From: a virus
UHGV virus genome: UHGV-1597594
DNA: 61,373 bases
Strand: one strand, 5' to 3'
The notes under the pieces were generated by a model. That model did no database searches. It was not told where the DNA came from and was given only the letters and a program-made list of their open reading frames with translations. A program made the position numbers and the translations under genes. Below, piece after piece: positions 4,618-61,373 of the stretch. The stretch's first letter is position 1. The number at the start of each line of letters is the position of its first letter.

Positions 4618-5562
4618 ACAGTCAAATACAGGATAAAATTGCCGTTGTATCATAGTATCTGCGTCAAAATTCTCATCAATGAGATGTTTATGCGTACGCC
4701 AATTATGCCAGTGTTTTTGAATTGTCTGCAAGTTATTTGATTTTTGCGGATTCAATGCAAAGTCTGTTGATAATACAGGTTCATTGTTCAAATGCGCTTG
4801 TATTGCTGCAATAACTGCTTCAACAGACATCCACTCAAATGCAGTCACACAAATAAAACCTGCACGCAATGCATCTTGAGTTTTGTAAAAGTGATATGTT
4901 GGATGAGTTGCTGCGCATTTTGATGCATTTTTGACAAGTGCATCAAAGCTTTTTGCGCTGTTATGCGACACTGTTGGATTGATTTCTACTACGACATTGT
5001 CATATCGCAAATCATACAACTTTAAGTCTATTCTGTAGTCATATTCAAAATTTATGCCAAGACGTTCAAATAGCAATGCATGCCAACGTTCATTAAGTTT
5101 TGACTGTATTTGACCAGATGCTGCTCTGCATTTTGCATGCATGCAAAAATACGGCACATCATATCGCTCTTCACATGTTTGACGCAACTTAGCAATGTTT
5201 GCAGGACCAAGCTTGCCAAAATGCTTAAGCTTAGTTGCATTTGCTTTGTCAGTATTGCTTGGACCTGCTTTGCCAAAATGTTCAAGCTTTGTCGCATTCG
5301 CTTTGTCAGTATTGCCTGGTCCAAGCTTGCCAAAATGTTTAAGCTTAGTCTGCTTGCATTGCTCTGTTACATGTGATAATTGCATATTGTGTTCTACACC
5401 ATATTTTCGTAACATTGCAATTCGCCTAATGTATTTTCTACGAATTTTGCTATGTGATGTCTTTCTTGACGCATATCTCACATATGGCGTACTTGCAATC
5501 AATGCATCTCGCTCGTTTTCAAGTTTAGCAATACGAGCATCAATCTCTTCTTTTGTCATCAT
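4600..5562 (-). CDS. homing-endonuclease-like protein (N-terminal coiled coil, 19-aa tandem repeats, PD-(D/E)xK/Vsr-like C-terminal region); paralog of 53489-54610
   Basis: ATG at 5562. Three repeats of TKL(K/E)HFGK(L/A)GPxNTDKANA; the C-terminal region YDLRYDNVVVEINPTVSHNS resembles the D..hhhE(I)xxxxxH core of Vsr/DUF559-type nucleases. Sits inside the split polymerase gene. Nuclease call is inference. Confidence 0.55.
   Translation of the reverse strand: MMTKEEIDARIAKLENERDALIASTPYVRYASRKTSHSKIRRKYIRRIAMLRKYGVEHNMQLSHVTEQCKQTKLKHFGKLGPGNTDKANATKLEHFGKAGPSNTDKANATKLKHFGKLGPANIAKLRQTCEERYDVPYFCMHAKCRAASGQIQSKLNERWHALLFERLGINFEYDYRIDLKLYDLRYDNVVVEINPTVSHNSAKSFDALVKNASKCAATHPTYHFYKTQDALRAGFICVTAFEWMSVEAVIAAIQAHLNNEPVLSTDFALNPQKSNNLQTIQKHWHNWRTHKHLIDENFDADTMIQRQFYPVFDCGHAKV
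5200..5360. repeat. ~57-bp tandem repeat (about 2.6 copies) inside CDS 4600-5562
   Basis: ccaagcttgccaaaatg(c/t)ttaagcttagt...tttgtcagtattgc(t/c)tgg recurs with a ~57-bp period; it encodes the 19-aa protein repeats. Confidence 0.8.
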
Positions 5563-7432: not shown

Positions 7433-7783
7433 TTAGTACATTTCTCGTTTAACAAGAGCTTTGCGTTTTGAGCGTAGCCCTGCCCTATTACGTAATTCTA
7501 CTGACCAATCACGAATCATTTGCCATGCAATCCCACCACGTTGAATACCACCGTGCTTGAACATTTCATTGCAAATACCTTGAATAAACACTGCATCAGA
7601 CTTTGTCAATGCATCAACAATTTGACCATGCGTATCTTCTGATTTGACATCATTGCAAAGCTTAAGCTCATCTACTGAAAGTTCGCCAAGCAGCTCATAG
7701 TAGTATATGAGAGCTTTGCGTGCGGCAATTGCTTTTCTTGAATTGCCAGAATAAGACAAAGTTACATGTTTGCTCATATTCAA
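7433..7783 (-). CDS. hypothetical protein
   Basis: 116-aa ORF tiling between dUTPase and polymerase N-fragment genes; no motif recognised. Confidence 0.5.
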   Translation of the reverse strand: MNMSKHVTLSYSGNSRKAIAARKALIYYYELLGELSVDELKLCNDVKSEDTHGQIVDALTKSDAVFIQGICNEMFKHGGIQRGGIAWQMIRDWSVELRNRAGLRSKRKALVKREMY

Positions 7784-7797
7784 TTATTGTTATGGTG

Positions 7798-9303
7798 TTA
7801 CAATTTGATTGCGCCTCTACGAGCAAGCTCTTCTTCAATCAATCGAACATGATTGTTAGCATACCAAAATTGCAATTTTTTGTGATAATTGCGAACGTTG
7901 CCAAGCTGTTCTTGAGTTTCTTTATACATTGAAGGCTCTCTGTTGTCATACAGACAATTGTTGACTGACACAAAGTAATTTGGGTCTGCTTTGTAATGCT
8001 CGATTTCATCAGGATTTGTTAAACGTCTAATAAAGTTGTCTGGTGAAATATTCGCCGAGCGCATACTTGACGGATACAACGAGTTTGCATCAACACAGAC
8101 AACCATACGAGCCCAATGGTTAAATGGTTGCTTAACAAAGCCGCCCTCAAATGAATGTACAACGTTCTCCGGCCCACCTTGAGCACATACAACTTTACCG
8201 CCATATTTGTTGTACAAATATGTCATCATGACGCCCTCAGATTGCTTAACTGGTCCTTGACAGTGATTCATGTCAATATTTGTCATATTTGACAATGACA
8301 TCACATTTGATATCAAGTCAGTTTTTGCAGCAATCATCGCATTGACCATCGTATCGACAGCATTATATGCAATGAATGTGCATGGATGATACAAATACAG
8401 CTCTTTAAGTGTGCAATCATAGGGTAGCTTACCTACACCAAACATGCGATGTGCAATATAGTCAAGTCGCAATGACTCTTTTTGCCACACTGAATAGTCG
8501 TATGTGTCCATGAGCTGCATGTAGTCATCAATGTACTTGTGGTATGGCATACCATTGCCCCAGACAGTTCTGCCAACTGGAGATGCCAATGCCAAATCAA
8601 TATTGTGCATTGCGCATCGATTTTTGACATAGATGTTATCGAAGCCATTGATGTTCCAGCCTGTCAATGCAGGAATGTTTTTGAAGAGCTTAGTCACCCA
8701 AAAATGCAACAATTCATGCTCATTTGCATGTTGAAAGATTTTGACAGTTGGATGTTCTTTCAAATACGCAGCAAAGCAATGTTGACCCATGTACTCTTGA
8801 ATGATGCCATTGACAAACTCAAATGCATCATCCAATGTTGGGTTTTGTTTGCCGCAGCTTTTGCGCAAATCATCATCATTCAACAAGTCAACAGTAGTCT
8901 GAATGACACAATTGCATTGTTCATCGCATGTACTTATTGCGTTGATAGGCATTTCAGCTTTGTCAGGCTTTGGAAAGCCATTGCCAATTTCAGTCTCAAT
9001 ATCGTAAAAGTACAACTTTGGTCTACGATAAGCAAACAATTCAGCTTTGTCAGCTTCAGGCAATTCAAATAAGAATTGCAGCAAGTCAAATTGATTGAAT
9101 CGTTTTGCTGTGACTCGAGTCACTGGCAATTTACGCCAATCTTGAATATCTGCATATTGAGGCTCTACGTGGTCTGATATTTGCCATACTGGAAATTGAT
9201 AAGGCTGTTCACAGACTGGGTATGTTTTGATGTCAATGCCACCTTGCTCATTAACATATGAGACTTCAATGCCATGTGACAAATATGCTACGTCAACAAT
9301 CAT
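7798..9303 (-). CDS. family B DNA polymerase, N-terminal fragment (3'-5' exonuclease domain + polymerase motif A)
   Basis: ATG at 9303. FYDIETE (Exo I), WNINGFD (Exo II), YNAVDTM (Exo III), VCVDANSLYPSS (motif A, DxxSLYPS). The ORF ends about 95 aa after motif A, without motifs B or C. Confidence 0.85.
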   Translation of the reverse strand: MIVDVAYLSHGIEVSYVNEQGGIDIKTYPVCEQPYQFPVWQISDHVEPQYADIQDWRKLPVTRVTAKRFNQFDLLQFLFELPEADKAELFAYRRPKLYFYDIETEIGNGFPKPDKAEMPINAISTCDEQCNCVIQTTVDLLNDDDLRKSCGKQNPTLDDAFEFVNGIIQEYMGQHCFAAYLKEHPTVKIFQHANEHELLHFWVTKLFKNIPALTGWNINGFDNIYVKNRCAMHNIDLALASPVGRTVWGNGMPYHKYIDDYMQLMDTYDYSVWQKESLRLDYIAHRMFGVGKLPYDCTLKELYLYHPCTFIAYNAVDTMVNAMIAAKTDLISNVMSLSNMTNIDMNHCQGPVKQSEGVMMTYLYNKYGGKVVCAQGGPENVVHSFEGGFVKQPFNHWARMVVCVDANSLYPSSMRSANISPDNFIRRLTNPDEIEHYKADPNYFVSVNNCLYDNREPSMYKETQEQLGNVRNYHKKLQFWYANNHVRLIEEELARRGAIKL

Positions 9304-18581: not shown

Positions 18582-19091
18582 TTAATATGCGCATTGTATG
18601 CGATTAACTATTTCTGTATCGCCATCGCCAAAATACACATTGTGTTTAATGTTGTTTGTTATGTCTGTCAATACAGCTGTGCCATACCAGGTAATTTCTA
18701 CGTAGCGATTTAACGCTTCGTTAAGCAATGCATCGCTAAATTCCCAATTGTAAGCATTGCTAAATCTAAATGTGCAATCTTGAGAATAGCCTGGCACCAA
18801 TGTAATGGGCGCATTTGCAACGCATTTTAATGTGTTGCCTGCGGCAGATGTAAAAACAACTTCAAGTTGTACTTGAATGTTTTGCTTTGACTTATTTGTT
18901 AAACTTTGCACATCAATGTACAAAGATGATGCATTAACTGAAATGTTGTCATCAACTTTGTTATATGTGCAATTGCCAAAGTACATATCGCCATTTATCC
19001 AGCCTTCAGTCGTAATGGCATCTTCAGGCTTTATTACAGAACCCCCCCCCGCGTTTTGCGAACGATAGTGGTCTTGAGTTACACGTGACAT
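18582..19091 (-). CDS. tail-fibre-like protein, paralog B, with in-frame G9 tract near the N-terminus
   Basis: ATG at 19091 (MSRVTQDHYRSQNAGGGSV...); the GGG codons are a run of 9 G on the coding strand. Confidence 0.65.
   Translation of the reverse strand: MSRVTQDHYRSQNAGGGSVIKPEDAITTEGWINGDMYFGNCTYNKVDDNISVNASSLYIDVQSLTNKSKQNIQVQLEVVFTSAAGNTLKCVANAPITLVPGYSQDCTFRFSNAYNWEFSDALLNEALNRYVEITWYGTAVLTDITNNIKHNVYFGDGDTEIVNRIQCAY
19042..19050 (-). repeat. homopolymeric tract, C9 on plus strand = G9 on coding strand
   Basis: accccccccc at 19041-19050, inside codons 15-17 of CDS 18582-19091. Confidence 0.9.
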
Positions 19092-30735: not shown

Positions 30736-30750
30736 CATAGAACATCACAA

Positions 30751-30784
30751 AAGCAAGCAGACTGCAATTGCAATCTGCTTGCTT
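30751..30784 (-). terminator. terminator hairpin downstream of CDS 30807-31163; near-identical copy at 47033-47060
   Basis: aagcaagcagactgca-at-tgcaatctgcttgctt (16-bp arms, one mismatch); T-rich run follows on the minus transcript. Confidence 0.5.
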
Positions 30785-30806
30785 TGACACATTTGTAGCA
30801 TACAGT

Positions 30807-33531: not shown

Positions 33532-36500
33532 TTAACAAATTGATGACGTGCCATCAGTATTTGCTACAACTGTCAATGCACTATCAAACTCATCTTGTTG
33601 CAATACATGGTCAACTATGAGTGTTTTGCGAATTGCAGAAAGTTTGGTAAGCAATTGCATCAGCACTTGCTGATAATTGATATTGTTGACATCATGCTCA
33701 GCGCCAACAATCTGCCCATTGCTAAGCTTGCCACTGATTTCATCAATGAGCAAGATGTTGCCAACTTTGTTTAAGCGTTGAGTCAAAATGAGATGCACGA
33801 TTGCAAGACCTGCGAAAGTCCCTTCCATGCCAGACATTTGACTTACGCTTCTAATTGACTTCGAACCCATCAAGTCAATCATCTTCAGCACATTGTTGTC
33901 ATTGATGTCAAAGAACACTCGGTAGTTCAATGAATCCAGCAAATCATTGAGCTGTACATTCAATGATGTTGCAATTGCTGCAAAGACATATGAAACTAAG
34001 CCTCGTTTGCTTGTGCACTGCTTATATGCATTGTACACCAAGTTTGCAATGTTCCACTTTTTAGAAGCTTGCAAATCTTTCTTGAGAGCTTCAATTCGCA
34101 CATTGTTTGCTGACAAGTCTGCTTGCATTGTTGCAATTTCTGCATTGATGCTTAGCAGTTTTGAGTTTGCTTCAGTTTCATGCTGCTTAGCATCATCAAT
34201 GTCGACTTGCAATGCAGCATTTGCTGCAATATGCTGCTGAGTTTGCTGCGCATGTTCAAGTGCAAATGCTGCAGCAGTCTTATCAATCTCAAGTTGTTTA
34301 AGCGCAGACTCATATGTCGCTTTCTTGTCATACTCTATTTGAGCAATTTCAAGTTCAGCATTTATTGCAGCCAGTTCTGATTCTACTGCAGATTTTGATT
34401 GCAATACATCTTGCTTTGCTTGTTCAGCTTTACGTTTGATGTCTGCAAGTTGATTTGTGATATCTGCAATTTGTGTTTTGACTGCTTCGACTTCAAGCAA
34501 TGTTGCTGCAGTAGCTATTGGTTGTGCAATGAATGCGTCTAAGTCTCTTTGCGCATTGACTACAGTTCTCTGCAAATCATTGAGCTTTTCTGCATGCATA
34601 TCATATGCAGCTTTATGTGCTGGATTCAGCGCAGCAATAATTGCATTTGAATCTGTGACATCAATGACTGTTGCTTGCAATTGCTCAATTTCATACTTCA
34701 AATTGCCAATTTTGACAACATTCTCATTGAATTGCTCTGTTTTTTGTGCACATTCTTGACGCAACTTAGCAAGCTCAGTTGACAGCCACAGCTTGTATGC
34801 TTGTCCTGTGCCAGATGTCAAGTCATTTGTACATACAGGGCATTTGTCGTTTTCAAGTTGCTTTTGCTTGTCTATAACATTGTCGATGTTTGTTTTTGCA
34901 GCAGATACTTCTGTTCTAAGCGCATTTTGAACAGTGTTGATGTCTTCAATTTGCTTTTGCAAAGCATCTATTTTTGCCCGAGTGTTTGCATTGTACGACT
35001 TGCCAAGATTTATCAGCACAGAATCAATGTGCTGCTTTGCTGCATCATATGCAAGCTTTGATTCATCAAGCTTTGTTCTGTACAATAACTCTGCATGCGC
35101 AACTTCTTTCTGCACTTTTGCAGATAGCTCATTCTGTTTTGTAAGCAGCTCAGCATATGTATTGTGCAGCTGTGAGCCAGATGCTATGACATTTGTGTAT
35201 GCTGCATTAGCTTCATTGTCAATATTAGTGAGTTGTTGCTCAATCTGCGCTTTTACTGTTTGCAATTTAGACATGTCTTGCAATGCAAGTGCAGCAATGT
35301 CAAGCTCAACTTTGCGAATCTTTGCAACGATGCTATCGATATTTGCTGTTGCATCTTCTACAGTTAAAATATCTGCAGAAATTTGATGCAGTCTTTTTGA
35401 GAGCTCTTCTACTTTTGCACGTGCTTTTGTAAGTTTTGCAGACCACTCTTTTTGATTATCTTGTCGTAACTGCAAAGAGTCATTGAGTTCATTGCAAGTT
35501 GTATTGAGAGACTCAAGTTCTGCTTTTATTGCGACATCAGTCAACGCAGGTTTGCTAAGACCATCAAACAATGCAGCTTTTGCAGCATCATTAGAATTGC
35601 CGAGCTGCACAAATGTATTGATGCCAAGAGTATCAAGCAACCAGTCATTCAATGAATTTGAGTCCATTGCAATGATTTGGTCAAGCAATGTCTGATTGAT
35701 GCATACATATCGCGACAATTCCCATATAGAGCCAAAGATTGCATATAGTGTGTCTTTGATTTCATGCTGCGGCACTGCATAGTCATCTGACAATCGCACA
35801 AGTTGCACAGTCTCATTAACTGTTGACACATTGTCTCGCCATGAGCCATCTGCATTTATTCGAGAACCTCGTTTGAATTTGCGCTCAAGTGTTCGAGTCA
35901 ATTTGTAATGCACATTTTGACCCGCAACTACATGCACAAACACACAAGAAGCTTCAAGCTTGTCATATGACTCATTGTCAATCAACTTGTCATTGAAGTA
36001 CGTCAAAGCATTCTGCTTTGTTGCTGCAGAAGACTGTCCAGCGTCAATGAAGCCAGTCAATAGCCATTTAATAAGCCTAAAGATTGTTGTCTTGCCATTG
36101 CCATTGTTGCCTCTAACTTGTGTAAGTTGCGCAAGATTGTCAAAGCTAACATCAACATCTTTCAATGCCATGAACTGATTTGCTTTAACATTTTGAATGA
36201 CATATTTTGCAACTTCAGTGTCAAAAGACAATTTATCAATTTGTTCATCAATCAATGACTTGAACATGTCAACAAACTGCTGAGCGTCTTCAGTAGCAAC
36301 TATAGCATTGCGTTCAATGTACGCATTGACCCAGTCAAGTGCAGCATCTTTAAGCCATTCAGCAGTTTGAACTTTTTGCAGCAAATTGTCGCCATTTGCA
36401 TCTACAGCATTGATTGAATCAATGACAGCAGAATCATACAGAATGTCAATTGCGGCAACAACGTATGAACTTACAAGATTCTGTGCAATGCGCTCAACAA

Positions 36501-37458
36501 TACCAGACAGTTCGGGCTTTGTGACCTTTGACTTGATTTTGATTTTGTTGATGCGACCAGGATTGATGAGTGCAATCTTATCTGTTTTGATGTCATTGTC
36601 AATTGTGATTGTATGATAATGCACAAGCTGCTCAAGTGGATGCCACTCTGCACCAATTCGCTTGTTGTCAATATCGATGTCAAGCAAGTTGTAGCCATGT
36701 TCTGCAGTGCCCTGTTGCATTGCAGTGTCATTCAACAAATAGTCGCCTTCACCAAAATCTCTGACAATTGGCGAGCCGCAGTATGTTAATGTCTTGGTGC
36801 CAGAAGTCCATATTGCATGTTTGTGAATATCACCCATTGCAACAAAGTTGCTGTGAAACTGTGTTGCATCTATACGACTGTCATTGTCACCACGAACAAT
36901 ACAATCATCAAAGTTGACACAATTCTTTACTGGGTCATGGAACAGCTCAATGACACACATTGATGACAATGCTGCAATCTGCGATTCATCAAGTGATGCC
37001 CAAGGCGAATATGTGCCACCAGACCACTTCTCATTTTGAGCCCACACAGCAGCAGCAAAACCAGGTGCAAGCAATTCAACTCTTGAGCTATTGATGTATT
37101 TGATTCGCTTATCATCAATTGCAGTCACAAGCTTATCAATACTGTCTGTCCACTGCATTTGTGAGCCATCACCAGCATCAAATGTGTTATCACGTTGCTT
37201 CAAATCATGATTGCCTGCAGTGATAACGATTTGAAGCTTGTCATTGACTTCAAGCATGCCTTTGAGCAACTTAACAAACAGCGACTCTTCAAGTGAATTG
37301 CTGTTCCAATGCTCAAACACATCACCAACAATAAACACTAGCTCAACTGACTTTGCTTTGTCAATCAGTTGTTTGTTGATATACTCGTATTCTACAAAAC
37401 GTCGTAAATGCCCTTGTCGAACATTATATTGAATGTCTGCTATGTGAAGTGCTTTCAT
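33532..37458 (-). CDS. fused SbcD/Mre11-like phosphoesterase and SbcC/Rad50-like ATPase (single 1308-aa polypeptide)
   Basis: ATG at 37458. N-terminal HIADIQYN, VGDVFEHW, ITAGNHD (calcineurin-like phosphoesterase motifs); then Walker A GNNGNGKTT, a long coiled-coil region and C-terminal ILLIDEISGKL (Walker B/D-loop). Confidence 0.8.
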   Translation of the reverse strand: MKALHIADIQYNVRQGHLRRFVEYEYINKQLIDKAKSVELVFIVGDVFEHWNSNSLEESLFVKLLKGMLEVNDKLQIVITAGNHDLKQRDNTFDAGDGSQMQWTDSIDKLVTAIDDKRIKYINSSRVELLAPGFAAAVWAQNEKWSGGTYSPWASLDESQIAALSSMCVIELFHDPVKNCVNFDDCIVRGDNDSRIDATQFHSNFVAMGDIHKHAIWTSGTKTLTYCGSPIVRDFGEGDYLLNDTAMQQGTAEHGYNLLDIDIDNKRIGAEWHPLEQLVHYHTITIDNDIKTDKIALINPGRINKIKIKSKVTKPELSGIVERIAQNLVSSYVVAAIDILYDSAVIDSINAVDANGDNLLQKVQTAEWLKDAALDWVNAYIERNAIVATEDAQQFVDMFKSLIDEQIDKLSFDTEVAKYVIQNVKANQFMALKDVDVSFDNLAQLTQVRGNNGNGKTTIFRLIKWLLTGFIDAGQSSAATKQNALTYFNDKLIDNESYDKLEASCVFVHVVAGQNVHYKLTRTLERKFKRGSRINADGSWRDNVSTVNETVQLVRLSDDYAVPQHEIKDTLYAIFGSIWELSRYVCINQTLLDQIIAMDSNSLNDWLLDTLGINTFVQLGNSNDAAKAALFDGLSKPALTDVAIKAELESLNTTCNELNDSLQLRQDNQKEWSAKLTKARAKVEELSKRLHQISADILTVEDATANIDSIVAKIRKVELDIAALALQDMSKLQTVKAQIEQQLTNIDNEANAAYTNVIASGSQLHNTYAELLTKQNELSAKVQKEVAHAELLYRTKLDESKLAYDAAKQHIDSVLINLGKSYNANTRAKIDALQKQIEDINTVQNALRTEVSAAKTNIDNVIDKQKQLENDKCPVCTNDLTSGTGQAYKLWLSTELAKLRQECAQKTEQFNENVVKIGNLKYEIEQLQATVIDVTDSNAIIAALNPAHKAAYDMHAEKLNDLQRTVVNAQRDLDAFIAQPIATAATLLEVEAVKTQIADITNQLADIKRKAEQAKQDVLQSKSAVESELAAINAELEIAQIEYDKKATYESALKQLEIDKTAAAFALEHAQQTQQHIAANAALQVDIDDAKQHETEANSKLLSINAEIATMQADLSANNVRIEALKKDLQASKKWNIANLVYNAYKQCTSKRGLVSYVFAAIATSLNVQLNDLLDSLNYRVFFDINDNNVLKMIDLMGSKSIRSVSQMSGMEGTFAGLAIVHLILTQRLNKVGNILLIDEISGKLSNGQIVGAEHDVNNINYQQVLMQLLTKLSAIRKTLIVDHVLQQDEFDSALTVVANTDGTSSIC

Positions 37459-47032: not shown

Positions 47033-47060
47033 ACAAGCAGGCTGCAATTGCAGTCTGCTT
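47033..47060 (-). terminator. terminator hairpin downstream of CDS 47107-47652 (copy of the 30751-30784 element)
   Basis: caagcaggctgca-at-tgcagtctgcttg; followed on the minus strand by the promoter-like box and the start of the gene at 46945. Confidence 0.5.
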
Positions 47061-47106
47061 GCACTTTACTAACCCTTAAAATCAATGACACTATGTCAAT
47101 GTCATT

Positions 47107-58737: not shown

Positions 58738-59217
58738 TTATTCATTATCGTCATCATATCCCATGCAATCTTCAAGACTTGCAAAGTCATCATCAAAGTC
58801 ATCGAATTCAGGCTCTTTATTGCACCATTTGTAAGGTGGATTGTTGAGCAATTCAAGCTCTATTGCATTTGACTGTGCAGAAATCGGAACATATTCGAAT
58901 GCTTCGACTGACATGTCAAATTTGATGCAATGCAGCCACGGAAACATATCAGTGTCTTCATGCACAATTGGCTGACGAACATAGTCTTTCATTGCAATGA
59001 ACTTGCTGCCGTTGTCCCAGTCTTTTACAGGAATTTCAAATTGCGATATGACAGTATGACAGCTTTCAAAGAAATTGCAGGATACACCTACAATAACATG
59101 AGAGTCTGTACGTTGGCGTTCTATTGCAAGAAAGTCATGTTTCTTGGAAAGACGAACTTCTCCATGTTTCTCTAAGAAGATTTTAAGAAGTTCTTTGTTA
59201 ATGTCGTTGATGTTCAT
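58738..59217 (-). CDS. hypothetical protein
   Basis: 159-aa ORF, preceded upstream by the promoter-like box at 59250-59288. Confidence 0.5.
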   Translation of the reverse strand: MNINDINKELLKIFLEKHGEVRLSKKHDFLAIERQRTDSHVIVGVSCNFFESCHTVISQFEIPVKDWDNGSKFIAMKDYVRQPIVHEDTDMFPWLHCIKFDMSVEAFEYVPISAQSNAIELELLNNPPYKWCNKEPEFDDFDDDFASLEDCMGYDDDNE

Positions 59218-59382
59218 TGTTGTAGAGATTTTTGTGTACTATATTGATATATGATAATTGTACTACAAAAATCACAAATTTGCACTGATTTGATATATAA
59301 TATGTCAATAAATTTCACATACAAAAGTCTTTTCGCTTATGAAAACTACTCAACTCTGGTTTGAACGCCAGCAGTCAATCGC

Positions 59383-59389
59383 GGGGGGG
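59383..59389 (+). repeat. G7 homopolymeric tract between an upstream ATG (59339) and the downstream ORF
   Basis: gcgggggggc at 59381-59390. Confidence 0.9.
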
Positions 59390-59463
59390 CTCTTCGTGAC
59401 ACTATTATTAGCGGTACTATCAACAAAGCAGATGGTTCACTACTTGAAGCTGCATATGCAACT

Positions 59464-60117
59464 ATGCAAGAAGTCGAATGCTATGATGCTGACACTGGTG
59501 AATTCTTAGCAGGCTCACCTATCACAGTGCAGCCAAATGGCATGCCAACATATAAGTTGACAATTCCTGCAAACAGGCTTGGTGCAGGTGCATTGTCAAT
59601 TTGTTCAGTGTATCTTGATAATGTCAGTGTAAATGACTGTCTACGTTATGGCACTGGCTCCACTTTATATTGCTATGCAGGTCAAGGTGAGACGCTTGAT
59701 AATGTCAATTTGACATGTGGTGATACACTTGCATGCTTACCCTGGATTCACGAAATTCATAGAGGCGATTCAGAGACAAATGAACAACGCATAGCAATTG
59801 TGCTTGATGGCATTGAACATTTTTGCACTGATGAAGACATTCAGCTACTTGCATCGACATTGTCACACCCATTAGAATCATTTGGAGATGACAAAGTGTT
59901 TGCAGGCAAGCCTACGTACTATGACAATTGCTTTGCTGAATGGCTAATGCTCAATGATTTTCAAGCAGGCAACATGGTCGATACGTCTGTCACTGACTGC
60001 ATTTTGCTTATTGCAAATGACCCAGTAGTTGGCAATGACATCTTGATTACTCTTGAGCACATCACATCAGCGTTCAACTTCAATATGTATGACATGACAA
60101 ACTGGAATATGCTGTAA
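59464..60117 (+). CDS. hypothetical protein; full-length form probably starts at ATG 59339 in the +1 frame across the G7 tract
   Basis: ORF-track ORF starts at an internal Met; reading from ATG 59339 with one extra G in the tract gives a stop-free, in-frame extension (MKTTQLWFERQQSIAGGALRDTIISGTINKADGSLLEAAYAT-MQEVE...). Confidence 0.6.
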   Translation: MQEVECYDADTGEFLAGSPITVQPNGMPTYKLTIPANRLGAGALSICSVYLDNVSVNDCLRYGTGSTLYCYAGQGETLDNVNLTCGDTLACLPWIHEIHRGDSETNEQRIAIVLDGIEHFCTDEDIQLLASTLSHPLESFGDDKVFAGKPTYYDNCFAEWLMLNDFQAGNMVDTSVTDCILLIANDPVVGNDILITLEHITSAFNFNMYDMTNWNML

Positions 60118-60130
60118 TGAACTGCAAATG

Positions 60131-60166
60131 CACAAAAAGACTCAGCAATATTGCTGAGTCTTTTTG
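60131..60166. terminator. bidirectional intrinsic terminator
   Basis: aaaaagactcagcaatattgctgagtcttttt: 11-bp perfect stem, 2-nt loop, flanking A5 and T5. Confidence 0.75.
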
Positions 60167-60237
60167 TGTGCACTGTGACGCGCTTAATTGATACAGTCTA
60201 AGTGTAACATAGTCTGAAATGTTTACAAATTTACTTA

Positions 60238-60702
60238 TCAAATACCAATGTATATTGCGTATTCTGATGTTTTGATATCATCAGCGTCAAATTCAATTTC
60301 ACCATAGTTTTCATCACCTTGTGTTGCTATGATATGTGTAGCAAGCTTAACTTCATCATAGTACAAATCATAGAACACTTGCGTGCCTTTGTAAATTGTG
60401 ATAGCTGTGTTATTATCATACAACACTGGCGTCACTGTTTTAACAGGACCAACTTCTTGTGGCAAGGCCCTATCAAGAAATGTCAGTCTAATTGGTGTAG
60501 TGTACCGAGTATAAATATGCACGGTGAACTGCTTTAACAGCTTTCTTTGTTGGAGGGCTTGTTGTGCCCCCCCCCCAGTTACGAGGGATTTGCATATGAA
60601 TTGAGTTTTTGAAGTGAGTTGAGTTTTGATGCAAGATGCAAAACAACTAAGATGTTGTTTTGATATGTACATATGGGCAGTCAAAATATATAAAACAAAC
60701 AA
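60238..60702 (-). CDS. hypothetical protein with G10 tract near the 5' end; N-terminal boundary unreliable
   Basis: GGG codons (VTGGGAQQ) are the 10-nt homopolymer at 60567-60576; the 42 aa upstream look non-protein-like; an ATG (atgcaaatccctcgtaactgg) just upstream of the tract is out of frame by one. Confidence 0.4.
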   Translation of the reverse strand: MFVLYILTAHMYISKQHLSCFASCIKTQLTSKTQFICKSLVTGGGAQQALQQRKLLKQFTVHIYTRYTTPIRLTFLDRALPQEVGPVKTVTPVLYDNNTAITIYKGTQVFYDLYYDEVKLATHIIATQGDENYGEIEFDADDIKTSEYAIYIGI

Positions 60703-60760
60703 TTTAATAATTTGAAAAACTCATAAGCTTTATGACATTCAAATTGAACTGGGGGGGGGG
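60567..60760. repeat. 14-bp inverted repeat with homopolymers (C10-agtt ... aact-G10) flanking a ~170-bp AT-rich segment
   Basis: ccccccccccagtt at 60567-60580 and aactgggggggggg at 60747-60760 are exact reverse complements. Confidence 0.85.
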
Positions 60761-60869
60761 TCACATATCTGGCTCAATCTCTTGTTGTAACGTAGGTGAC
60801 ATTGCATTCGATGAAAAGTTTGCAGTGTTGCTTTCATGTCACATTGCATAACTTAAAACATCGAAACAT

Positions 60870-61277
60870 ATGGCAGTTCAAACACGTTCGGTACTCAAGA
60901 CATATTTTGAAACCGGAGATAAACCCACCTCAGCACAATTTGGCGACCTCATTGATAGTGCGTTGATGGCGAAAGCAACGCTTGAATCTGCGTCATTTAA
61001 TGCAGTCGCAAACACAGTGCATAATATAACGACATCGTCAGCAATAACATGCACATTGTCAAACTTAACATATGGCGAATCATGTGTTATTAATCGAGTA
61101 GGCAATGCGACAGTTTGCAATGCGACAACAACATTTGCATTCAATAATGGGCCATTGTACTATGCAGCGGGCTACTCAGATGTATCAGCAGATGCTACGG
61201 GTGCAATGTCATATGCAATTCTTATTGCAGGTAACACAACTCGTTGGGTGTTAATCAATCGCGCTTTCTACAAATAG
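60870..61277 (+). CDS. hypothetical protein (N-terminus MAVQTR shared with the next gene)
   Basis: ATG at 60870; 135 aa. Confidence 0.55.
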   Translation: MAVQTRSVLKTYFETGDKPTSAQFGDLIDSALMAKATLESASFNAVANTVHNITTSSAITCTLSNLTYGESCVINRVGNATVCNATTTFAFNNGPLYYAAGYSDVSADATGAMSYAILIAGNTTRWVLINRAFYK

Positions 61278-61354
61278 CAGACATACTTGAATGAAATTGT
61301 TCGAGCTTGTCTGCAATACAAATAACAGACAAACTTCAAACAATTTCTCATACT

Positions 61355-61373
61355 ATGGCTGTACAAACAAGAA
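61355..61373 (+). CDS. partial CDS, 5' end only; begins MAVQTR like CDS 60870-61277
   Basis: atggctgtacaaacaaga at 61355 encodes MAVQTR; truncated by the window end. Confidence 0.35.

Follow-up and report, generated by a model that had tools for sequence, protein, structure and literature searches.

Facing polyG tracts in the 5' leaders of small genes are probable contingency loci in an uncultured jumbo phage

We analysed a stretch of 61,373 nucleotides from the viral genome UHGV-1597594 (hereafter the window) and focused on a perfect 14-bp inverted repeat near its end, which is built on C10 and G10 homopolymers. In our assessment, the two arms are probably independent, slippage-prone polyG tracts located in 5' leader modules, acting as phage contingency loci, and not the ends of an invertible element. 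In this arrangement, each tract would belong to a short module with the layout ATG, 12 nt, AACT and a run of G residues (Gn). Because the leader-carrying open reading frames (ORFs) are divergent, the modules stand head-to-head and AACTG10 reads as an inverted repeat. Consensus metagenome assemblies were the data basis throughout.

The left arm consists of C10 at 60567-60576 and AGTT at 60577-60580, and the right arm of AACT at 60747-60750 and G10 at 60751-60760. C10AGTT and AACTG10 are exact reverse complements (14/14), enclosing a 166-bp spacer (60581-60746) with a GC content of 0.283, as compared with 0.402 for the window. Divergent ORFs are present at 60238-60702 (minus strand) and 60870-61277 (plus strand). 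A minus-strand ATG at 60595..60593 lies 19 nt upstream of the left G run and, with G10, does not share the frame of the long ORF. These findings confirmed an initial description of the locus made from the letters alone (the sequence-only reading), which had reported the repeat, its AT-rich interior, the divergent genes and the out-of-frame ATG. It had proposed an invertible promoter switch, two coupled slippage tracts controlling divergent genes, or a secondary structure at a replication or packaging site.

The symmetry alone is weak evidence, because a perfect 14-nt inverted repeat with a spacer of 20-600 nt occurred in 39% of the windows simulated with a first-order Markov model (mean 0.62 per window). 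Unlike the symmetry, the homopolymers are far beyond chance. The 61-kb window contains 12 matches to G7, falling in four tracts, against an expected 0.05. There are only four G/C runs of at least 6 nt; each follows an ATG at a distance of 19-44 nt and has its G residues on the sense strand. The inverted symmetry of the two arms is incidental.

Near-identical genomes revealed length polymorphism at these tracts. Three independent assemblies, ENA ERZ28666419 scaffold_4, JGI 3300045988 (= IMGVR_UViG_3300045988_152288) and ENA ERZ27261301 k119_106340, showed 0 substitutions over 6.4-6.5 kb. Their sole differences were in an upstream G run termed tract A (G7, G6 and G6, respectively), in the left arm (C10, C9 and C10) and in 68 bp, i.e. 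two units, of a 34-bp tandem repeat. The unit of this repeat comprises an 8-bp hairpin (AAAACAAC/GTTGTTTT) together with a GATGCAA doublet; across assemblies, 1.2, 1.6, 2 or 3.6 copies were present (3.6 in contig L002). It is a third hypervariable element, located between the two leaders, and its copy number may alter the promoter geometry.

The paired left/right tract lengths were 9/10, 10/10, 13/9 and absent/7. The two tracts vary independently, and their coupling is not supported. Slippage itself, as the sequence-only reading had suggested, is favoured by the evidence: both lengths vary among near-identical genomes, and the left one sets a reading frame. The absent/7 pair comes from L003 (IMGVR_UViG_3300045988_149023), a more distant relative, which has kept the spacer, the right arm in the form AATT-G7 and the downstream gene, and has no left arm. 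At the left-arm site, only a start-less remnant of another ORF is found, and the left gene has been lost. The spacer had the same orientation relative to both flanks in 7/7 cases (the window with the identical L061, L115, L116, L117, L113, L118 and L003).

For the left gene, the tract length determines what follows ATG 60595. At G9 or G12, this ATG is continued by 108 further codons, and at G10 by 25; the G10 of the window is out of frame. Among about 17 assemblies, we found G9 in 4, G10 in about 9, G12, G13 and G7 in 1 each, and an interrupted 9-nt tract in 2. In the G13 assembly, the adjacent T has changed to G, and the G7 state was deduced from the called protein. In-frame forms of the left gene were present in 7 of the about 17 assemblies. 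The gene was called with a length of 62, 75, 112, 118, 119, 133, 134, 144, 154 or 163 aa, and the called forms (118-aa, upstream-start or truncated) follow the tract length. The proteins called in the ON form have 118-119 aa and start with MQIPRNWGG(G)AQQ..., the 118-aa form being MQIPRNWGGAQQ...

We infer that ATG 60595 is the true start of the left gene, because four observations agree. Between the left tract and residue ~15 of the body, no ATG, GTG or TTG stands in frame, and the GTG at body residue ~15 is not conserved (GTA in L057). In the low-confidence AlphaFold (AF2) model of the product, which is all-beta, the strands begin at residue ~20; its pLDDT was 60, and it was left out of the fold search. 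The upstream ATGs chosen by gene callers at G10 lie in tandem-repeat DNA, and the resulting peptides differ from assembly to assembly without conservation. The minus-strand ORF of 60238-60702 is present as the sequence-only reading described it, but its 5' third (60597-60702) is probably non-coding, because it crosses AT-rich tandem-repeat DNA and its protein is not conserved between assemblies.

The left leader is not confined to this locus. A 65-nt module, 100% identical apart from the tract, precedes three unrelated bodies elsewhere (in L059, L060 and L111), where it has no inverted partner. A leader-plus-tract unit lacking such a partner likewise occurs in L054, at 5407. A metagenome scan for the left arm returned 48 matches, of which 47 were chance hits (15-mer) and one was real, namely the paralogous copy of L111 at another locus, with an uninterrupted C12. 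The paralogous leaders of L059 (2715-2756) and L060 (2114-2155) carry interrupted 10-nt tracts, GGGGGAGGGG and GGGGGTGGGG, which read CCCCTCCCCC and CCCCACCCCC in the window-plus orientation. Their ATG is out of frame with the differing downstream bodies, with no alternative start, and these copies are apparently locked off. In L118, a TGA occurs within the leader.

The right tract differs in its context. Six independent assemblies have G10 at this place (the window and L061, which is identical to it, count as one), L113 has G9 and L003 has AATT-G7. No long ORF follows the right tract in any frame, the maximum being 29 codons, and the 39-codon leader ORF stops 18 nt before the start codon at 60870. 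The tract is located 110 nt upstream of the 60870 gene, and cannot gate that gene directly. The 109 nt from the tract to the 60870 ATG are 97-100% conserved, with an RNA fold z of -3.0, and form a hairpin ending about 8 nt before the ATG. The leader ORF stays in frame with G7 (L003) but not with G9 (L113). Its end falls in the 3' arm of the hairpin at G10 and G7, and about 60 nt earlier at G9. Both leaders have AAAAACTCA 6-8 nt upstream of the ATG, in addition to the spacing from ATG to AACT and the G run. A third leader of like layout, ATGAACATTACAATGAACT-G7, precedes a 156-codon ORF in a relative.

With these results in hand, we propose the following mechanism. The G runs would gain or lose G residues by slipped-strand mispairing during replication, the copying enzyme being the family-B DNA polymerase encoded in the window. 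The left tract would thereby act as an on/off switch for a 117-aa protein (118 aa at G12): G9 and G12 would be ON, and the G10 of the window OFF, unless the fortuitous ATG 60672 in the repeat DNA is used. On the right, tract length might determine how far ribosomes run into the hairpin before the 60870 start, so that translation of this fibre-like gene would be modulated by melting. This route through leader ORF and hairpin is pure inference, and the right leader may equally be a relic. The four tracts of the window would form a contingency-locus set in a plastic cluster of small accessory genes, probably for the virion surface. Tracts of a length prone to slip, about 7 nt or more (G10 and G10 here, G9 and G7 elsewhere in the window), and length polymorphism among near-identical genomes, two hallmarks of contingency loci, were both found; a 5' tract whose length would gate expression was recognized for the left arm and not for the right.

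Table 1. Coordinates of the polyG tracts, leaders and neighbouring features in the window
Feature	Position	Strand	Description
Left polyG tract	60567..60576	-	G10 on the sense strand; its length sets the frame from ATG 60595 into the body
Left leader module	60577..60614	-	AAAAACTCA, 6 nt, ATG (60595..60593), 12 nt, AACT (MQIPRNW...)
Left gene body	60238..60566	-	108 codons and stop; in frame with ATG 60595 at tract lengths of 9 or 12
34-bp tandem repeat	60624..60664		Unit TTTTGATGCAAGATGCAAAACAACTAAGATGTTG; 1.2 copies in the window; 8-bp hairpin inside
Right polyG tract	60751..60760	+	G10
Right leader and short ORF	60732..60851	+	ATG, 12 nt, AACT, G10, 29 codons; 39 aa
MAVQTR gene	60870..61277	+	135 aa; conserved 34-aa N-terminus, variable beta-rich body
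Leader-A module	59291..59402	+	112 bp; ATG 59339, G7 at 59383-59389; precedes the 217-aa gene 59464-60117
Fourth tract, G9	19042..19050	-	14 codons into the gene 18582..19091 (169 aa), in frame
Perfect 19+19 palindrome	60131..60168		Terminator-like, bidirectional, between the convergent 59464-60117 (+) and 60238-60566 (-)

The two remaining tracts of the window have a similar position within their genes (Table 1). Nearly all homologues of the 19042 gene are full length, and their Gly run shows in-frame length changes or interruptions. This is the pattern expected of a slippery tract selected to stay ON. An IMG/VR pattern scan with the flanks of this tract found nothing; the flanks have diverged. 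Tract A is located 15 codons past ATG 59339, and G8 or G5 would fuse this ATG to a 241-codon frame, giving a product of ~256 aa. The 217-aa ORF represents this frame from its internal ATG 59464. The tract was G6 or G7, out of frame with ATG 59339, in all assemblies seen, and at G6 the callers take a TTG start that yields 251 aa. In the fetched pieces of two related contigs, we found seven more tracts of like geometry, some in frame and some out.

The cluster around these tracts is rearranged among relatives. One gene body (CTCTAAATTAGTCTACCTGCA...) carries two different leaders in L054 (5407-5413) and L003 (6968-6974), with the junction exactly at the G7 tract, which suggests that leaders and bodies are exchanged at G tracts. 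Leader A occurs in relatives as inverted copies at both ends of a ~5-6 kb cluster of small genes (in L003 at 4664-4776, plus strand, and 7691-7799, minus strand). The window is 99.98% identical up to 59408 to ENA k119_20060, which represents the backbone, and 100% identical from 59291 on to ENA scaffold_281, so that its junction leads from the backbone into leader A and the 217-aa body. In scaffold_281, L003, L115, L116 and L117, the 217-aa body is joined to the side of a BACON-like gene, opposite to the window, and the backbone leads into another body in k119_20060, L003 and L054. The window is either the product of a cluster inversion between leader-A repeats or a mis-join within the 92 bp common to the copies. 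If the inversion is real, the inversion idea of the sequence-only reading would be right at another scale and with other repeats.

Taken further, these observations allow a tentative extension, which we put forward as a possibility and would not favour at present: a diversification locus with three layers in a gut-type jumbo phage. PolyG switches would stand at the starts of many small cassette genes, the tracts would serve as recombination joints between leaders and bodies (the left-type leader being found on three unrelated bodies), and inversion between leader-A copies would flip the ~5-6 kb fibre-cassette cluster, the window being the flipped form. Such a locus would provide combinatorial variation of the virion surface without a dedicated invertase or a diversity-generating retroelement.

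Several observations weigh against switching at the two facing tracts. The commonest left state, G10 (about 9 of about 17 assemblies), is OFF from ATG 60595, and the interrupted tracts of L059 and L060 (GGGGGAGGGG and GGGGGTGGGG) are out of frame, with no other start available. Because of these two findings, the left-type genes may be in decay and not subject to switching. In none of the three frames does the right tract gate an ORF. The left gene product has no Pfam or PHROG family, and the whole data basis for switching and reversibility consists of consensus metagenome assemblies. Homology of the two leaders beyond the 14-mer was not supported: in a global alignment of the 70 nt upstream, 1119 of 2000 shuffles scored as well, and we claim only a common layout, namely the ATG offset and a 9-mer.

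The same states of the left tract and its paralogs fit a neutral explanation, in which the runs are mere slippage hot spots, the ORFs behind them are dispensable or decaying, and length changes are drift with no on/off role. The TGA in the L118 leader, the complete loss of the left gene in L003 and the out-of-frame G6/G7 of tract A in all assemblies seen would also be expected on that basis. We consider neutrality unlikely. Decay is expected to erode tracts, not to keep them, and the window has no long G runs other than the four at gene 5' ends, all in sense orientation. Furthermore, the leader-plus-tract module is preserved at 100% nucleotide identity before different bodies, and in-frame forms are frequent, both for the left gene (7 of about 17) and for the 19042 gene, where nearly all are in frame.

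Alternatively, the G runs could be sites of programmed transcriptional slippage or ribosomal frameshifting, through which a fixed DNA sequence would yield a mixture of proteins. In other systems, RNA polymerase can slip on runs of 9-10 identical bases, and G10 is a one-nucleotide shift away from the body frame. As the principal explanation, this is distinctly improbable, since the DNA length varies between identical genomes, which is enough to explain the frame changes, and the interrupted tracts of the paralogs could not slip. No downstream stimulatory structure was identified either. Recoding is compatible with contingency loci, and slippage at the RNA level could contribute to decoding.

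An invertible promoter would require a site-specific recombinase that flips the 166-bp spacer between the 14-bp arms and redirects transcription. The perfect repeat around an AT-rich spacer between divergent ORFs, together with the larger rearrangement nearby, would suit this idea, and phase variation in Bacteroidota is commonly based on invertons, homopolymer switching being less known there. Nevertheless, we regard it as very improbable at this locus. Three of five features sought for an inverton were absent: a second orientation (the spacer has one orientation in 7/7 assemblies), paired conservation of the arms, whose lengths are unequal and variable (9/10, 13/9), and a recombinase in the window. 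The flanking repeats were there, although chance alone would give a 14-nt repeat at this spacing in 39% of windows. In L003, spacer and downstream gene persist without the left arm. The sequence-only reading had itself seen no recombinase gene, and a Pfam search of the 58 window proteins agreed, yielding no resolvase, integrase or invertase family. The architecture of a C run and a G run in inverted repeat was not found elsewhere in IMG/VR. A promoter scan of the spacer gave one sigma-70-like match (60660-60687), no more than in shuffles, and near-matches to the Bacteroidota -7 element were noted by eye only. The scan for sigma-70 promoters and terminators likewise showed no enrichment over shuffles.

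Homopolymers are error-prone, and all the evidence comes from metagenome assemblies, so that polyG artefacts of two-colour chemistry or homopolymer miscalls were considered as well. There is very little chance that they account for the tracts, whose positions agree across more than 10 independent short-read assemblies (ENA, JGI and Logan). Their lengths range from 7 to 13, beyond an error of plus or minus 1, with identical flanks and contiguous genes on either side. A structural element, either a cruciform or a long hairpin, that marks an origin of replication or a packaging site is hardly credible: the single-stranded DNA fold (z = -4.95) and the AT-rich spacer with iteron-like tandem repeats speak for it, but the fold is due solely to the 14-nt arms, which are unequal in relatives and of which one is absent in L003, the repeat copy number varies freely, and the cumulative GC skew, profiled as far as 60000 and so not quite to the locus, has no inflection. 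Apart from the repeat's own trivial fold, nothing was found for this third proposal of the sequence-only reading. Finally, a miniature transposable element (MITE) was rejected, as the arm ends show no target-site duplication and each arm varies on its own.

The window is part of a jumbo phage of ~175-181 kb, of a kind found in Bacteroidota; the related contigs have 174-181 kb. A DNA-level search of cultured phages found no close relative of the window. Its 1113-aa protein has 23-31% identity to proteins of jumbo phages of Chryseobacterium, Tenacibaculum and Flavobacterium, of Sphingomonas phage PAU and of uncultured megaphages. These distant protein similarities, together with BACON-like neighbours, point to Bacteroidota as the probable host clade. 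The window encodes a family-B DNA polymerase, a gp32-like protein, thymidylate synthases, deaminases and a head-fibre domain protein. The minus-strand gene at 33532-37458 encodes a 1308-aa protein with an N-terminal metallophosphoesterase and a Rad50/SbcC-like ATPase domain, an apparent Mre11-Rad50 fusion (PHROG 35725). The long palindromes at 30750-30785 and 47034-47061 have the core GCAAGCAGNCTGCAATTGCA in common, and may represent a recurring regulatory or terminator motif.

Downstream of the right tract, the product of 60870-61277 belongs to a family with an almost invariant N-terminus of 34 residues (MAVQTRSVLKTYFETGDKPTSAQFGDLIDSALMA). The N-terminal motif is also seen in Flavobacterium phage structural proteins and in many contigs of uncultured viruses. 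The AF2 model of the protein had a pLDDT of 82.8, and its top Foldseek matches were the Pa223 capsid spike (E 1.6e-4), a KP1 baseplate protein, the N-terminal part of the CBA120 tailspike TSP4, and T4 gp9/gp10. Because of this similarity of the model to spike and baseplate proteins, the product is probably a small virion fibre or spike protein. The gene from 61356 onward also starts with MAVQTR, and beyond the window end, a 100%-identical ENA contig contains more MAVQTR paralogs in tandem and inverted arrangement. PHROG and Pfam searches assigned no families to the left, 217-aa, 135-aa and 19042 genes, and an Rfam scan of 59000-61373 gave only a sub-threshold chance match.

The palindrome at 60131..60168 marks the 3' limit of the left gene. 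Close to it, between the equivalents of 60230 and 60231, L113 has a 491-bp insertion that places a small extra ORF with its own terminator between the convergent genes, and this is more evidence for gene flux in the cluster. The segment 61161-61373, which runs from the end of the 135-aa gene through the intergenic region into the start of the next MAVQTR paralog, occurs as an inverted repeat ~1.2 kb further on with 86% identity (L061 10873-11079). The window, IMGVR 152288 and ENA k119_106340 all stop at this repeat, which looks like an assembly break at repeats.

These results place a polyG device in an uncultured, Bacteroidota-like phage lineage with genomes of ~180 kb, where natural tract polymorphism is visible across public metagenomes. 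The concentration of tracts in a cluster of small fibre- or spike-like genes suggests that bet-hedging by frameshift is a wider phage strategy for accessory virion proteins. The gene calls depend on tract length (62-163 aa), which implies that such loci are systematically mis-annotated in virome catalogues. At the level of sequence, the locus has the attributes of a contingency locus, a mechanism that is itself already known. To our knowledge, experimental polyG phase variation in phages is limited to Campylobacter phages, with the addition of very recent work on short repeats in T-even phages. In full-text literature searches, we came upon no description of such tracts for jumbo or Bacteroidota-type phages.

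Compared with E. coli fimS and the Bacteroides invertons, the locus has in common the short inverted repeats around an AT-rich segment of 150-300 bp between or upstream of genes; it differs in its single observed orientation, in that no recombinase was found in the window, and in homopolymer arms that vary independently, one of them being dispensable. The Mu G and P1 C segments and the plasmid shufflons are comparable only with respect to the 112-bp leader-A repeats, whose inverted copies flank a multi-kb cluster of fibre-like cassettes. In contrast to Mu G and P1 C, no Gin/Cin-type invertase was found in the window, the leader-A repeats hold a start codon and a polyG run, and the junction may be a mis-join. 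The homopolymer loci of Haemophilus, Neisseria and Campylobacter also have their run a few codons past the start and are ON only at 3n+k lengths; here, the locus is encoded by a virus, with a host that appears to belong to Bacteroidota.

Among phages, contingency loci have been described for the coliphages T2/T4 and others (Gomez, Barrick & Waters, bioRxiv 10.1101/2025.10.21.683753). Repeats of at least 6 nt in phage genes undergo reversible frameshifts by polymerase slippage there, and bet-hedging was likewise proposed. The T-even repeats number more than 100 per genome, are short, occur in every gene class and are under-represented in tail fibres (bioRxiv 10.1101/2025.10.21.683753), whereas the long runs found here are rare, numbering 4 in 61 kb, and of much greater length (7-10); all consist of G and stand at gene starts. 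Hypermutable polyG tracts were reported for Campylobacter phages (Sorensen et al. 2021, Cell Rep 35:109214, as cited in PMC12823448). According to that account, the Fletchervirus and Firehammervirus genomes resemble the present one in having several long G runs per genome, in the 5' parts of genes, with ON/OFF switching by frameshift and links to virion or receptor-binding proteins. The lineage is unrelated: ours is a jumbo phage of ~175-181 kb and 40% GC, distantly like the Chryseobacterium, Tenacibaculum and PAU phages, and is known from assemblies alone. It differs further in its conserved leader modules common to unrelated bodies, in one tract that is confined to a leader or untranslated region, and in the facing arrangement of two tracts. 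The uncommon features of the locus are the leader-plus-tract modules on unrelated bodies, the variable tandem repeat between facing tracts and the inverted leader repeats flanking the cluster.

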